IMG/VR virus record: IMGVR_UViG_2684623059_000005
DNA length: 46,081 nucleotides
Reading direction: 5' to 3' (one strand)
Origin: a virus
Taxonomy: Duplodnaviria > Heunggongvirae > Uroviricota > Caudoviricetes
This document shows positions 36,201 through 42,200 of this stretch, one piece after another. Position numbers: made by a program. Numbering within the stretch: the first letter of the stretch is position 1; the number at the start of each line of letters is the position of its first letter.

Positions 36201-39200
36201 TCTCGCGCGGATTTGCGGGACTGGTGATGTTCTTGCCGAACATGCAGCCTTTCGCTGTCAGCGACCAGAATTTTTTGATGTTGTTAATCGCGGTACGGCT
36301 GTATCGTTCGCGCTGCTCGACGATCCCCAGCTTCACCATCTGGTGATATGCCTGATTAGCCGTCAGGCGGATACCATACTGTTTCAGCAGTGCACTCAGT
36401 GACAGTGTCGGGCGACTTGAGCCATCGTGTGCATCAGCAGGAGCATCAATGGCATAGCGCGGTGCCAGATTCGGTAAGCCAACAGCCTCCTGGAGTTTCT
36501 GACAGGCCCCAAGCACTGAAGAGTTAGACAGGTTTAACTCCCTGCGCATAAAGTCCAGCAGAATCACTCCAGCCTGCATCTTGTCAGCAGCCTGCCCGGA
36601 TAATTTTTCCGGTGCGCTGGTTACCATATCGAAAGTACGGATCACCTTCAGATGGAATGACGGGCTGATCCACATTGCATAGGCATACACCAGTTCTTTG
36701 CAGACATACGTCCCCTGGTTATTTCCGCCATTAATGACGCTAACTGGTTGATTTTGTTCCAGAGGCGGAATTCCACCCTCGGTGAAAAGTTGTTCAATCA
36801 ATTCACAGGTTTGCTTATTGGAGAGCCAGTATTTCGGGCGGTTTTTTTGTTCTCCCCCGGCAGCCCTGTGCAGATCGTTCAGGCTGTAACGCCCATAAGC
36901 ATCACGACGAACTTCAATACCATCAATGACCATCAGATTATTCATACTTCGTTTCTCCTCTTGATCAGGCGGCTGCACCCGCCGGTTTCTCATACTTACT
37001 GATAGTGATCTCGACCTTCCCTTTCGGGATAACCGGTCCCCACTCCACCAGCATTCTTTTCACCTGTCTGTCGTCTTCCCACACACCCGCGTGGGTCAGG
37101 GCGTCAAACAGCGCCTTGTTATAGTTGTCCAGATCGCGGATCCGGTTATCCGGAGGAAACAACACGATCTCCACTGAAGCAGGTGCCGACGTTGGTTTTG
37201 GCAGACGACGTAACTGCTCAACTATTGCTGCGCACGCCGCGCTCTGAAATTTTCGCCCCGCCGCGCTTATCAGGCTCTTACCAGCAAATGCCCCTTTGTT
37301 GGGGTGTCGCCAGTACGTGTTCACGCTGGGCGGGAAAGGCAGGATCAGCTTCATACTTTCAGGCCTCTCTCATGTAACCAGTGGGTTGCACGCAGCCTGG
37401 CGTTTTCCTCACCGGCAAGCAGTGAGCGGATAATCCCGACCGCCTCGCTGTCGTCGTCCTTCACCGCGGTATGAAGAGTGATACCCCGGGCCACGCCACG
37501 CTTTATCGTGATGACGCCTTTTTTCTCCAGTGCGCGAAGATGTTCCACCGCTGCATTCACTGAACGGTATCCCAGCATGGTTGCCACCTCCTGATTGGTT
37601 GGCGGGAAGCCACGTTCTTTCTGGTAAGAAATCAGCATATCCAGCACCTGCTGCTGGCATTGAGTTAACGTCGTCATGCCGCCATCTCCCTGACCAGTTT
37701 TTCCGCCTGCTGGCGAACCTGCGCCAGAAACGCCTCACCACATGCCTCAAGTTCATCACGCCCGATGTAGCTGATTGCCGGTCCCTTCCAGGTCTTGTCG
37801 AAAACAGCAATAGCACCAGCGAAGAAAGCGCCTGTCGGCACCTGCTTCTCATCTTTCGGGATAAACCAGGCAGGCAGTTCAAAACCAATACGCCCGCGAA
37901 TAAAAGCAATATGATCTGCATCTTCCGGCCACCACACTTCGCTGGTGGCAGCTTTGATCAGGAAAACATAGCGCCCGCCTTTATCACGCATGGCACTGGC
38001 ATGTTTCATGATGTAACGCATGCCGGTGATGTATTGCCCCTCATGCTGACTGGCGCGGCTGTATGGGGGATTACCAAAAGCAGCACCTTTAAGCTCCGCA
38101 AGACGTTCTGACCAGTCATGCGCCAGCGCGTTGTCTTCCGCCGTGTAATACGCGGCACATTTGGCGTTATCACCGTCAGTGAACAGATCCAGAACAAACG
38201 GACCAAACAAGGTGTTAATTCCCCAGAAAATGTTGTCCGGCGTGCGCCACTGATCGCCCACTTCCTTCAGTTCATGGGCTGGTTTGTTCCGCAGTTCTAC
38301 CAGCGCCTGGCAATATTTATTACTCATTAAGCCCCCACGTAAAAAGCATCCGCAATGTCTCCGGAAGTACAGCCCGGATGGGCTTCAATGAATTTCTGAA
38401 CGTCATTTAACAGACTCATGATCACCCCCTGAATCCTGCCGGGATCTGGCTGTAGTCCACGTTGTCGTAACTGGCTTTGAAGTACGGGTCTTCACGTTTT
38501 TCTGTGTGCGTGCTGACGGACGGCGATAAGCGCAGGGAAAGCTCATCCCATTTTTCCCGCAACTTCGACGGGCTGAGCACGTTACGGCACCAGAACGGAT
38601 CGCGGCTGACGCGGCTGTACATCTCGCAGATTTGTTTGTGAGTACGACCATCCTGCACACACATCAGGCGAATTTCGTTTGCCCATGCTGTCCAGTTCGG
38701 TTCTTTGGGACGAACCACCTCGCCGTCACATTCGGCGGCCTGCTCGTACAGGGCGATGATTTTTTTCCAGAGCCACTGTGCGCAGGTCAAATCATCCTGC
38801 GTTCCCCACTGGCGCTTTTTAGGGCTGAATACAACCGCATCAGGATGGCGAGTTAAAAACTCCTGTTCAGCCGTTTGCGTGTCCGGTTGCGAAGCGTCCG
38901 GACGAGAAGAGGTTTTATTCTCTGTAGTAATCTCTGTTGTATTCTCTGTAAGATCATTGGGCCATTTTGACCCGATGACAGCGTGTCGTTTTGAACCAAT
39001 GGATCGTGTCATTTTGCGCCCATCCATCAGGTCACTTTGACCCGATGGAGAAGTGCATTTTGACCTGATGGATTCGTTCACTTTGACCTCTTCTAAAAGC
39101 TCACTTTCATAGTTGATCGTGTAGAAGTTGGTCATGTCACGCTTCGATTTATTGAGTTGCTCGCGACGCAAAACCCCAAGTGATTTCAGGCTTGCAAATG

Positions 39201-42200
39201 TGCGTTTCAGAGTGGACTCTGACCAGAACGGAAACTGCTCCAGCCACTGTTCTGTCGTGTTATAAACCCAGCGAATTCCGCCATGCTCAGTGCCTGAATT
39301 CGTTTCATTCAGCCAGTAATGAAGCTGCTGCAACACAATTGCCTCATTCAGACCAATACGGCATGCAAGATCACGATTTATCACAATGGGCTGGGATGTC
39401 ATTAACAGGCTCATGACCGACCTCTATTTCCCTGAATTTACGACGAAACTGTTCGAGCGGACTGAAGCATTCATGTTCATAGCCTTCACGGAGGTAGATA
39501 ACCCGTTGTGTTTCCGGCTCCCAACGAATGACTCTGACGGGCACTCCGTAGTGATCTTTGAACCAGCGGTTAACTTGTCGCAAAGGACTGTCTCCTTCTG
39601 CCGGTTGAAATCACCCACAGCCCACTCTGCAAAGCTGTGGGTTACAATTTCCCTGTCACCTGGTACATTCACTGCATAGCAATACTCCACCTTCGCTTTT
39701 CCACCCGGTACAGGAAGCGCAATCAGTTGCGAGCGACGGTAGTGTGTTGTTAAACTGTTCATGCGTTAGTTTCTCCACAACCAGAAGCAATCGACGCCAC
39801 GACGCCCGGAGCTGCACACTCGCGGGCGTTACTCTTTTCCGGCGCACAAAAAACACGAAATAACAGTGTTAAATGCTCCTGCCACTTCGCCATTACTTGG
39901 TAGCTGTTCTCTTCGATTTGCTCACGCTCAGCCTGGTCAATAACTCCATCAGCAGTTGCCTTGCGTAAGTACTGGGAATGCTTGCCAATCCATTCTATTG
40001 ACTCCATCAGCCGCTGATTAATGTCACCATTGTCAATGTCATCAATGACCACCAGCGGCACAAACACCCCATTACTACGACGGGCTATTGCATCCGTTAC
40101 ATGCCTGGTACCACTGGCATCCTGTAAAACCATGGCCCACTCAAGTGGAAAAATTTGATCCCCACCGCTACGCAGTCTGTTATGCAATTGATCTTTTGCT
40201 GGGGTGATATCATCAGATTTATACAAACCAAGAATTTCTGCTGCTTCCTCATAGCCATGAGGTAAATCAGCAATCGTTCTTCGTATTGCTGCCACCAGCC
40301 ATGCTGGTTGCTTATCAACTTTCCATTCAGGTTCTTTACCCACGTTTAAGCCCTCATATCTGTGGTTTCTGTAAATCGATTTATCCATTAGATTTTTCAT
40401 AAAGCTCAGGTTTAAATGGCAACCGTCCGCAAGTTCTATATGCAGCCTCTGCTGCACGTCCTTTTGGAATTAACTGGCCAGGACGGTTTCGCCACTGATA
40501 AACGGCTTCAGTTGTTATGCCGAAAAAAGCAGCAACTTTCTCAATGCTGCCGAAGTAGCTTTCGATATCGTCAGTCGTCATATGCCCTCCTAACTAAGTT
40601 TTATTAGATGTTAATTATCAATCTATCTTAGGTCAATAAAAACTAAGATTACTTAGTAATTAAAGAAATGGTGCTCCTATGGAAACGGTTGGTCAGCGTA
40701 TAAAATCTCTGAGAAGAGTTACCAGAACGTCCCAGAAAGAATTGGGTAAATTTTGTGGAGTAAGTGACGTTGCTGTGGGGTACTGGGAGAAAGACATCAA
40801 TGTCCCTGGTGGAGAAGCACTTTCAAAATTAGCGAAGTTCTTCAATACGTCAATAGATTACATTCTTTATGGTGCGGAGTTTGAAGGCAAACTCGTCACA
40901 AACATGCGCAGAGTTCCTGTAATCTCGTGGGTTCAGGCTGGGCAGTTTACTGAGTGCAGGACAGCAGAAGTGTTTAGTGAAGTAGACAAGTGGGTAGATA
41001 CATCATTAAAGATTGGTGATAACTCATTTGCATTGGAGGTTAAAGGCGACTCCATGACTAACCCTAACGGCCTCCCAACAATACCAGAAGGCGCAACAGT
41101 GATTGTAGATCCTGATGCAGAACCCCGGCATGGAAAAATAGTCATCGCTAGACTTGATGGAACAAACGAAGCCACAGTAAAAAAATTAGTTATCGATGGC
41201 CCCCAAAAGTTTTTAGTGCCATTAAATCCCCGGTACCCCAACATCCCGATCAATGGTAATTGCCTCATCATTGGTGTAGTCAAAGGAGTTCAATACGAAC
41301 TCTAGCCCCCCTTTTCTCTAACCAAAACACCGAACTAAGAAAAGTTTGGTGTTTTCTCTTGCCATCAAAACTAAGTTAAGTTAGATTTTATATCAAAGAT
41401 AACGAACAGGCAGGACGCCCACGAAGTAGCCGACGGTGGCGTATGAATGACCGGATGATTCGCACATGGCAGGAGAGTGAATATGGATGGCAGTATCGAC
41501 AACCAACGAGATGCCTGGCTTGTGGTGATTGAAGCAGCAAAAACTGCATTAAGCCAAGTTGAAAGCAGTAACTACAGAACAGTTAAACAAATGGCTTTGG
41601 GCTCTATTATCTATGCCTTTGAAAGGCTGGGCTTTGATTTTGAAGCAACGAGTATTCTGTCAGAACAACATGAAAAAATGAATAGAGAAGACGCCGCAGC
41701 CTATATCGGCGTAGAAGCGCAAACCTTAGCTAATTGGGCTAGCACAGGAAAAGTTCGAATACCTTTTTTAAAAATCGGTAGAAAGGTTATTTACCTAAAA
41801 AGTGATCTTGATGCCTATCTTGCCTCATCGAAGGCAAATACCACCAAGTAGCTCACATACCTACCACCTCGCCTGATGTGGCTAAAAGCAGGCACATAAC
41901 AGCTAAGTATTTTCAACCAGAGAGAATCCTTAGCGTTGTGGTGAATGCGGCTCAGCGCACGCGGGTTAAGGTTGAGACTGACAGTCGACCTTCTGTGGAT
42001 ACCCACCCGCCTGGTGTGCAACCTTCGCCAGGCACCGGGAGGCACCCGGCACCACAACAGCCACTGCTTTGGCGGTACCAGTTTGTACACTTGCTTCCGG
42101 CTGGTACCGCTCTTTTTACAAAACAGAGAAGAGCATCACCGGACGACGGGCTCATAACCCAATCCACCCGGGCGGCTGCCACCGCAGGTGTTCTTCTCTG

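Follow-up and report, generated by a model that had tools for sequence, protein, structure and literature searches.

A predicted phage replication initiator with internal iterons and a DnaT-like C-terminal tail, encoded in a lambdoid module without a recognisable helicase-loader gene

Introduction

In phage lambda, the origin of replication lies inside the gene of the initiator O, where direct repeats with dyad symmetry, spaced ~20-24 bp apart, are followed by an A+T-rich, strand-asymmetric tract in the DNA that encodes the linker between the two domains of the protein (the lambda annotation places the iterons at O codons ~117-145, with the A+T-rich region after them). Here we describe a gene of similar anatomy in a 46,081-nt stretch of DNA from a virus of the Caudoviricetes (IMG/VR record IMGVR_UViG_2684623059_000005), the whole of which we call the window. 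The gene belongs to an E. coli prophage and encodes a 330-aa protein, referred to as the initiator, which shares with lambda O its position in the early rightward operon and a homologous C-terminal domain. Unlike lambda O, it has six iterons rather than four, an N-terminal domain unrelated to that of O and a different C-terminal end (...SQIPAGFRG rather than ...DLTNTDWIYGVDL), and it is not accompanied by a P gene. Origin anatomy and C-domain are accounted for by the lambda O/P paradigm, the N-domain, the tail and the lack of P are not, and what is new here is a lambda-like initiator and candidate origin apparently without a phage-encoded loader.

The second system to which the gene can be compared is the host's DnaT, whose gene is directly upstream of dnaC. 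The extreme C-terminus, SQIP(P/A)GFRG, is common to E. coli DnaT and the initiator, and in relatives of the initiator the tail-bearing protein is likewise encoded immediately upstream of a DnaC-type loader. The initiator differs from DnaT in lacking its N-terminal domain and its three-helix domain (PF17948), and DnaT acts at structure-recognised forks, whereas the initiator is predicted to be a sequence-specific origin binder. According to a 2026 cryo-EM study, how DnaT and the preprimosome bring in DnaB/DnaC is still not known (PMC13377028).

Phage systems with the same tail motif in a lambdoid early-operon context include YdaU-YdaV of the Rac prophage, O-DnaC of Gifsy-1 and gp15-gp16 of Shigella phage 75/02. 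YdaU ends ...NTVSLPDSAIPPGFRG and the DnaC paralogue YdaV starts after 6 nt, while Gifsy-1 O and gp15 have GFRG-type tails and are followed by a DnaC homologue and by the DnaC-like loader gp16, respectively. These systems differ from the window phage in having their own DnaC paralogue directly downstream and in their N- and C-domain types (DUF1376, DnaD-like). Similar in context are orf39 of phage SfV and the HTH_36 initiators of the Shiga toxin (Stx) phage types Eru5 and Eru6, which lack a loader, are followed by PerC-like, Dam, LexA DNA-binding-domain (DBD) and RusA genes, and have the same last 24 residues as the initiator (REDPYFKASYDNVDYSQIPAGFRG); the Eru6 reference phage is one such case of an HTH_36 initiator with the window-type tail. 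Their N-domain (HTH_36) and C-domain both differ from those of the initiator, so that tail and context alone are in common. The genome papers on SfV, SfII and SfIV call the gene product no more than a replication protein (PMC3851460), and the Eru classification of Stx phages states that the workings of the proteins of non-O/P replication regions are not known (PMC8951638). Lambda-O-derived and DnaT-derived parts have been found together in one mosaic protein, DopC/DopE of Cellvibrionales and Oceanospirillales; the domesticated DopC has an O-like N-terminus, a DnaT C-terminal domain and a P-like partner gene and lacks iterons (PMC5509034), whereas the window initiator has an N-terminus that is not O-like, an O-like C-domain, only the tail of DnaT, iterons and no P. 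Our literature searches on the GFRG tail, on YdaU/DnaT and on "initiator-solo" found no paper describing the motif.

Results

The initiator combines an unrelated N-domain with a lambda O-type C-domain

Over its full length (aa 1-330), the protein matched positions 1-298 of the 298-position profile of the PHROGs family phrog_391, "replication initiation O-like" (E 1.3e-101), and a GAGG is located 8 nt 5' of its ATG. No family match was obtained in Pfam or NCBIfam, no matching structure was found among PDB sequences, whether the query was the protein or a profile of its C-terminal region, and the PGAP label is "hypothetical protein". An AlphaFold2 (AF2) model built from 81 diverse homologues was confident for the N-domain (aa ~10-110) and for the helical C-domain (aa 179-297), with a disordered linker between the two and a flexible tail at the end (Table 1).

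When the whole model was compared with the PDB using Foldseek, only weak winged-helix matches were found. The N-domain is a winged helix like those of RepA_N proteins and the DnaD N-terminal domain, of the type that characterises DnaD-like/replisome-organiser proteins (PHROG labels 6493, 2514 and 4880). A weak fold resemblance to DnaD-like proteins and G39P was also seen. Structural-alignment identity to the staphylococcal plasmid RepA_N initiators (pSK41/pTZ2162) and to the DnaD N-domain was 8-14%, with no detectable sequence similarity; the RepA_N initiators also differ in having other C-terminal domains and in being plasmid proteins of Gram-positive hosts.

A preliminary description, made from the window's sequence, had called the gene O-like, and this proved correct for the C-terminal domain but not for the N-domain. 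BLASTP aligned only the C-terminal halves of the initiator and lambda O, with 33% identity over 148 aa (E 1e-26) in the lambda O C-domain (aa ~160-270), and the two share the signature P-x-W...W-A-N-(D/E)-I-R-L-M...F-W...L-S-P-x-K-L-R. With hmmscan relaxed to E<=5, Phage_rep_O (PF04492) matched neither the whole initiator nor its N-domain by itself; in the same run, lambda O matched this family at E 6e-36. Among homologues, N-domains, C-domains and tails are freely shuffled. Judged by these similarities, the protein is a three-part mosaic of a winged-helix N-domain unrelated to that of lambda O, a lambda O-type C-domain and a DnaT-like tail.

Six iterons and an A-rich tract occupy the coding DNA of the linker

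The gene contains six 23-bp repeats that keep a 23/24-nt register on the + strand (Table 1). Their gene-strand consensus is CCATCrGGTCAAAATGACnnGAT, with the core CCATCrGGTCAAAATGAC, and they have a partial dyad symmetry, ATCrGGTCA-AAA-TGACCyGAT, that is clearest in units 3 and 6. The sequence CAYTTTGACCYGATG is found exactly in three units. At up to three mismatches it had 11 matches across the window compared to 4.9 +/- 2.2 in shuffled sequences, none of 100 shuffles reaching 11, and 6 of the 11 matches cluster at the array. Tandem Repeats Finder (TRF) reported two arrays here, one of period 23 at the iterons (score 74; 39032-39089) and one of period 12 within the adjoining A-rich tract (38919-38950); only three TRF arrays in the 46 kb scored at least 50. 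Since the starts of the units are spread over codon phases 0, 1 and 2, the array is a repeat of DNA and not of amino acids, which disposes of the possibility, raised in the preliminary description, that the repeats are driven by coding.

An A+T-rich region was looked for next to the iterons and found in a 46-nt tract (38910-38955) with 67% A+T compared to 50% for the whole gene, its coding strand being 48% A. This tract codes for LTENTTEITTENKT, and initiators whose N-domain is of another kind show its TExTTExTT signature again. Together, the iterons and the A-rich tract are exactly the coding DNA of the linker that is disordered in the AF2 model.

In Trabulsiella, Rahnella, Edwardsiella and Escherichia ruysiae, orthologues that share the N-domain have the core GGTCAAAATG at 23-bp spacing, with 5-6 units in the linker, although these orthologues differ in their C-terminal tails and partner genes. 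Initiators that have the same C-domain and another N-domain carry other repeats, namely CCGTCAAAATCTGA every 15 bp in the e14 type, CAGAATGCGG every 23 bp in one Citrobacter type and ATTCACCAGG every ~23 bp in the HTH_36 type. A different N-domain thus comes with a different repeat, and the repeat sequence therefore tracks the DNA-binding domain, as in lambdoid O proteins. This covariation across relatives is the pattern that an origin predicts, and we infer origin function from it. Taken together, the gene is very probably a replication initiator with an internal iteron origin, as the preliminary description had proposed by analogy to lambda O.

The array also contains a perfect 13-nt inverted repeat (ATCCATCAGGTCA at 39022-39034 and TGACCTGATGGAT at 39061-39073), made of iteron half-sites 26 nt apart, which could form a cruciform or reflect head-to-head initiator binding. 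DnaA-box-assisted loading was considered and rejected, since the TTWTNCACA box is absent within 5 kb of the candidate origin and its count in the window is below chance.

No gene for a known helicase loader is found in the window or in a complete relative

When phmmer was run with lambda P and with DnaC and DnaB of E. coli as queries, no match was obtained among all ORFs (open reading frames) of the window even at E<=10, and the same queries found none in the complete 42.9-kb phage mEp460_4F5, which is 98.4% identical to the window module. The early-left genes of the window have no helicase or loader signature, and in 80 viral contigs that encode the identical C-domain, the +-7 kb searched contained neither P nor DnaC in any case. 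The preliminary description had reported that a P/DnaC-type gene does not follow the initiator gene, and this holds for the rest of the window and for mEp460_4F5 as well; it is highly probable that the phage encodes no loader of known type. The micro-ORF and the methyltransferase gene named in that description are indeed downstream, and neither is a loader. The micro-ORF is however a deletion remnant and not a functional partner, left when a clean in-frame internal deletion removed ~130 codons from a PerC-like activator gene of 162 aa; 26 aa at the start and 4 aa at the end (YVGA) have been retained. The PerC-like gene is intact in mEp460_4F5 and in SfV (orf40). The gene content of the window and of mEp460_4F5 fits the "initiator-solo" category (Weigel and Seitz 2006), which we take to be defined by an internal-origin initiator in a module without phage helicase, loader or primase.

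The initiator ends in the C-terminal motif of DnaT

The last nine residues of the initiator, SQIPAGFRG, are identical at 8 positions to the end of E. coli DnaT, SQIPPGFRG. When the family of the initiator was compared to that of DnaT by hhalign, the tail alone aligned (17 columns, E 1.6e-4). All 120 DnaT clusters examined end ...PD..IP.GFRG at the extreme C-terminus, and among 3,146 ORFs of at least 80 aa from species-representative loci and the window, a P.GF[RK][GS] ending occurs only in the 14 initiators. RAST names the mEp460 copy of the initiator "Primosomal protein I" because of this DnaT-like tail. SQIPAGFRG is nearer to the E. coli DnaT end than are the tails of DnaC-carrying phages (NTVPPGFRG, KTIPTGFRG), a closeness that would fit host mimicry, although the observation is anecdotal.

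The likeness to DnaT is confined to the tail. Pfam gave no match to the DnaT three-helix single-stranded DNA (ssDNA)-binding domain (PF17948) in the initiator, no DnaT chain was picked up among PDB sequences at E<=10 by the profile made from the C-terminal region, and neither BLASTP nor hhalign showed similarity of the initiator outside the tail to the N-terminal oligomerisation/PriB-binding domain of DnaT. Homology of the C-domain to the DnaT DNA-binding domain, to which a weak BLASTP alignment of PNW with PDW had pointed, was rejected because profile-profile comparison aligned only the tail. A representative homologue, P0165, has the window-type N-domain and a C-terminal segment closely resembling the DnaT DNA-binding domain (...WEPSQDFRQRANLWG...YWLSEGKVFNQTQWEQKF...); therefore, whole DnaT-like domains, beyond the tail, circulate among phage initiators.

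The tail is also found on other proteins. SfV orf39 (L163 4278-5096) has another N- and another C-domain and last 24 residues identical to those of the window initiator, and in four Stx-converting phages and Escherichia phage PhiR40_1 (H81-H85) only the tail segment of the query matches, at 79-82% identity. Since only the tail is shared in these cases, a recombination joint falls within the gene, immediately upstream of its tail. Intact e14-type initiators have the C-domain and the tail of the window initiator; e14 oweE/YmfN was considered as the same protein and rejected, its N-domain being different and HTH_36-like.

The class of tail tracks the neighbouring loader gene

We next classed the last ~20 residues of initiators at 80 loci with a lambda-O-type C-domain, taken from species-representative genomes, and searched +-7 kb around each for P, DnaC and DnaB. 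At the 27 loci with a WNxxExW tail (e.g. HWNSPEAWENTL), a lambda P homologue overlapped or abutted the stop codon in every case, and P was present at all 4 loci with the lambda-type NTDW tail, so that a W-rich tail was directly followed by a lambda P homologue in 31/31. GFRG tails were found at 18 loci, none with P; two had DnaC and 16 had no P, DnaC or DnaB homologue. In the two with DnaC (Enterobacter mori and E. vonholyi), the DnaC homologue begins 3 nt past the stop codon. Seven Oxalobacteraceae loci had an NF..QDYRAG tail, all with a distant DnaC-type gene. Between the P-linked and the GFRG class, C-domain identity reaches 75-81%, and therefore it is the tail, not the C-domain, that tracks the partner. 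All of the GFRG loci are from Enterobacterales, the group that has DnaT.

A reverse test was made on 80 viral contigs picked solely for a phage DnaC homologue. The upstream initiator ended N.IS.PD..[VI]P.GF[RK]G at 79 of the 80 dnaC loci; these initiators have at least 10 different, unrelated N-termini. Distant DnaC/IstB-type loaders, with 30-36% identity to enterobacterial phage DnaC, were paired with other tails.

Tails of the form NF..(Q/K)DY(R/G)... accompany distant DnaC/IstB-type loaders in Oxalobacteraceae (L210, L213, L216, L221, L224, L229 and L230), in mEpX1 (L331) and in Hafnia phage yong1 (L332), and this further class extends the proposed matching of tails to loader lineages. In Acerihabitans, Sodalis, Edwardsiella piscicida and Providencia (L193-L195, L197 and L199), the lambda-O-type C-domain is followed by a ~70-aa C-terminal extension ending ...W..IW...Q...; P, DnaC and DnaB were absent within +-7 kb in 5/5 of these loci, and the extension may be a fused adaptor.

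Gene context

Table 1. Positions in the window of the initiator gene, its parts and neighbouring genes.
Feature	Position	Strand	Remarks
Initiator gene, 330 aa, stop codon included	38422..39414	-	ORF list; phrog_391
N-terminal winged-helix domain, aa 1-112	39079..39414	-	presumed iteron-binding
Disordered inter-domain linker, aa 113-178	38881..39078	-	AF2 predicted local distance difference test (pLDDT) score 41-62 for aa 113-170
C-terminal helical domain, aa 179-297	38524..38880	-	homologue of lambda O C-domain
Flexible C-terminal tail, aa 298-330	38425..38523	-	low pLDDT
DnaT-like motif SQIPAGFRG	38425..38451	-	last nine residues; 8/9 identical to E. coli DnaT end
Six 23-bp iterons	38956..39094		units 38956-38978, 38980-39002, 39003-39025, 39026-39048, 39049-39071, 39072-39094
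Possible degenerate seventh iteron	39095..39117		array register kept, core weak: ATGAAAGTGAG
A+T-rich strand-asymmetric tract, candidate unwinding element	38910..38955		directly past the iterons in the direction of transcription
32-aa remnant ORF of PerC-like gene	38327..38425	-	phrog_1324 and phrog_23071 match first 26-28 aa
Phage Dam N6-adenine methyltransferase	37674..38327	-	PF05869, E 1e-45; not a loader
LexA-DBD-only protein, 108 aa	37351..37677	-	PF01726, E 3e-19; no peptidase domain
YmfM-like gene, 112 aa	39424..39762	-	directly upstream of initiator; phrog_1170, E 1e-69; near-identical to e14 YmfM
DUF4222 ORF, 70 aa	39371..39583	-	PF13973, E 1.5e-18; phrog_1343, E 5e-34
YmfL-family CII-like regulator	39759..40457	-	longest ORF; NF041471, E 1e-53; phrog_101
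Cro-like gene, 66 aa	40381..40581	-	opposite cI; first gene of rightward early operon that includes the initiator
CI/LexA-type repressor gene	40679..41305	+	divergent; ORF list; mEp460_4F5 annotation
Q-type antiterminator	34373..35167	-	PF03589

The minus-strand genes follow one another in the order cro, YmfL, YmfM/DUF4222, initiator, 32-aa ORF, Dam, LexA-DBD, RusA, KilA-N protein, DUF968 and Q, which is a lambdoid prophage module of the e14/SfII/SfIV/mEp460 type. The Cro-like gene was assigned by position and by size, which equal those of a 201-nt gene of mEp460_4F5 and of the annotated cro of SfV. The YmfL-family gene probably starts near 40343, as annotated in mEp460_4F5. The DUF4222 ORF is in a different frame from the YmfM-like ORF, with which it overlaps by 160 nt, and it also overlaps the first 44 nt of the initiator gene. 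It is annotated by PGAP at identical E. coli loci; in the record of mEp460_4F5, the YmfM-like ORF is the one annotated. Both ORFs have family support and may be a true overlapping gene pair.

Three further features of the window were observed. The 108-aa LexA-DBD protein is kept downstream of Dam in SfV-type modules and might act as a LexA decoy or competitor in the SOS response. The Q-type antiterminator bears a DnaJ-type CXXCXGXG zinc-finger segment (PF00684, E 2e-8). The strongest TRF array in the window is in the tail-gene region (9956-10045; 45-nt period, 2 copies, 80% matches, score 117).

Discussion

The anatomy of the gene and its neighbours suggests the following course of events. After induction, transcription from the early rightward promoter would pass through cro, ymfL and ymfM into the initiator gene; the winged-helix N-domains of initiator dimers would bind the six iterons, and the resulting nucleoprotein complex would destabilise the adjoining A-rich tract. 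The C-terminal part of the initiator would then recruit the host replicative helicase, with the SQIPAGFRG tail docking on the host DnaB-DnaC complex through a contact with DnaC or DnaB, such that host DnaC would be the "missing" loader. The preliminary description had suggested that the C-terminal half itself carries the helicase-recruiting function. Partner specificity does reside in the C-terminal part, but we saw no sign that the protein itself loads helicase; what it has instead is a DnaT-like tail of the kind that is genomically coupled to DnaC-type loaders.

The most economical reading of the tail comparisons is that the GFRG tail couples an initiator, or DnaT, to an enterobacterial DnaC-type loader or to DnaB-DnaC. 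Phages that have the GFRG tail and no dnaC would then use the DnaC of the host. For the window phage, we put at about an even chance the full proposal that the initiator recruits host DnaB-DnaC via a DnaT-mimicking tail and with no phage-encoded loader.

Several observations weigh against this proposal. The A+T content of the A-rich tract is moderate, 67% compared to 79% in lambda. Agreement of the window tail with the canonical motif is limited to the last nine residues, the tail having VDYSQIPAGFRG instead of S.PD..IP.GFRG; NVDY replaces the S.PD half of the motif N..S.PD..IP.GFRG, and other loader-less GFRG loci have the motif in full. Many of the loci in the tail-loader counts are related, and the coupling could in part be linkage, since the tail is coded beside the loader gene and the two may travel together in recombination. 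The window stops inside the early-left operon, leaving the far end of the prophage outside it, a gap that the complete relative mEp460_4F5 covers. Finally, it is the N-terminal domain of DnaT, not the tail, that has been suggested to recruit DnaB/DnaC (PMC13377028), and deletion of DnaT residues 154-179 weakens cooperative ssDNA binding (PMC4132743), so by analogy the tail could be a DNA-binding or oligomerisation element.

The deletion result also bears on an alternative that we consider unlikely, in which the initiator stands in for DnaT, its tail and/or C-domain engaging PriA/PriB or ssDNA, and loading proceeds via the host PriA-PriB restart primosome. This would agree with the tail being common to the initiator and DnaT, with the docking of the DnaT C-terminal region on PriA and its formation of filaments on ssDNA (PMC13377028), and with the restriction of GFRG loci to the group that has DnaT. 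However, a contact with the loader, or with the loader-helicase complex, is the simpler explanation of the tight pairing of the tail with phage DnaC (79/80 contigs, YdaU-YdaV and Gifsy-1), and the helical C-domain has no profile similarity to the DnaT DNA-binding domain.

We give still less credence to recruitment of DnaB directly by the lambda-O-like C-domain, in the manner of an iteron-plasmid Rep, with host DnaC acting generically and the GFRG tail serving an unrelated role in stability, proteolysis or autoregulation. The C-domain is kept at 33-81% identity across every kind of tail and partner, and hence must have a partner-independent function; the resemblance of the N-domain to plasmid RepA_N initiators and the weak fold resemblance to DnaD-like proteins and G39P point the same way. 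Left unexplained, however, are the near-perfect prediction of the loader gene by the class of tail and the invariance of the same tail at the C-terminus of DnaT.

A loader might also have escaped recognition among the small neighbours YmfL, YmfM, the DUF4222 protein or the PerC-like gene, which have no established replication role and are co-transcribed with the initiator, and viruses are reported to have swapped helicase loaders for non-homologous proteins before (PMC11087808). No neighbouring gene is common to the GFRG loci, however: no more than 7-8 of the 18 have YmfL, YmfM and DUF4222, the immediate downstream gene varies and the PerC-like gene is down to 32 codons in the window, which makes this explanation improbable. 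That the repeats are no origin, and that the module is what remains of a prophage in decay, as the deletion in the PerC-like gene and the truncated initiator of related type in K-12 e14 might suggest, is very improbable given that the gene is intact in the phage genomes mEp460_4F5, SfII and vB_EcoS-569R4, is covered over at least 80% of its length in many complete E. coli genomes, and has repeats kept in register across genera.

The docking proposal can be put more generally. In this tentative form, which we rate as somewhat short of an even chance, ...PD..IP.GFRG would be the DnaB-DnaC docking motif of DnaT, phage initiators would use the same peptide for their own DnaC or for that of the host, and tails would form an interchangeable code in which W-rich tails specify P, GFRG enterobacterial DnaC and NF..DYG distant DnaC/IstB-type loaders. 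If true, lambda O would have to bind P with its last ~15 residues rather than with the folded C-domain.

The initiator family is very common. Among 5,426 complete E. coli genomes, the gene had a partial match in 3,573 and was covered over at least 80% of its length in 1,057, and the search for homologues gave 4,303 clusters when grouped at 90% identity; at 50% identity, the representatives with E<=0.001 numbered more than 12,000. The family is found in Shigella serotype-converting phages as well, and the same 24-residue tail sits on other domains in some Stx phages. Identifying the initiator and its candidate origin matters for annotation, where NCBI gives a "hypothetical protein" and there is no Pfam or NCBIfam model, and the class of tail offers a testable rule for pairing mosaic phage initiators with loaders. 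For the long-open restart question of how DnaT recruits DnaB-DnaC, the tail provides a candidate of nine to sixteen residues. How the helicase is acquired bears on prophage induction, and in Stx phages it is replication that drives the dosage of the toxin gene.

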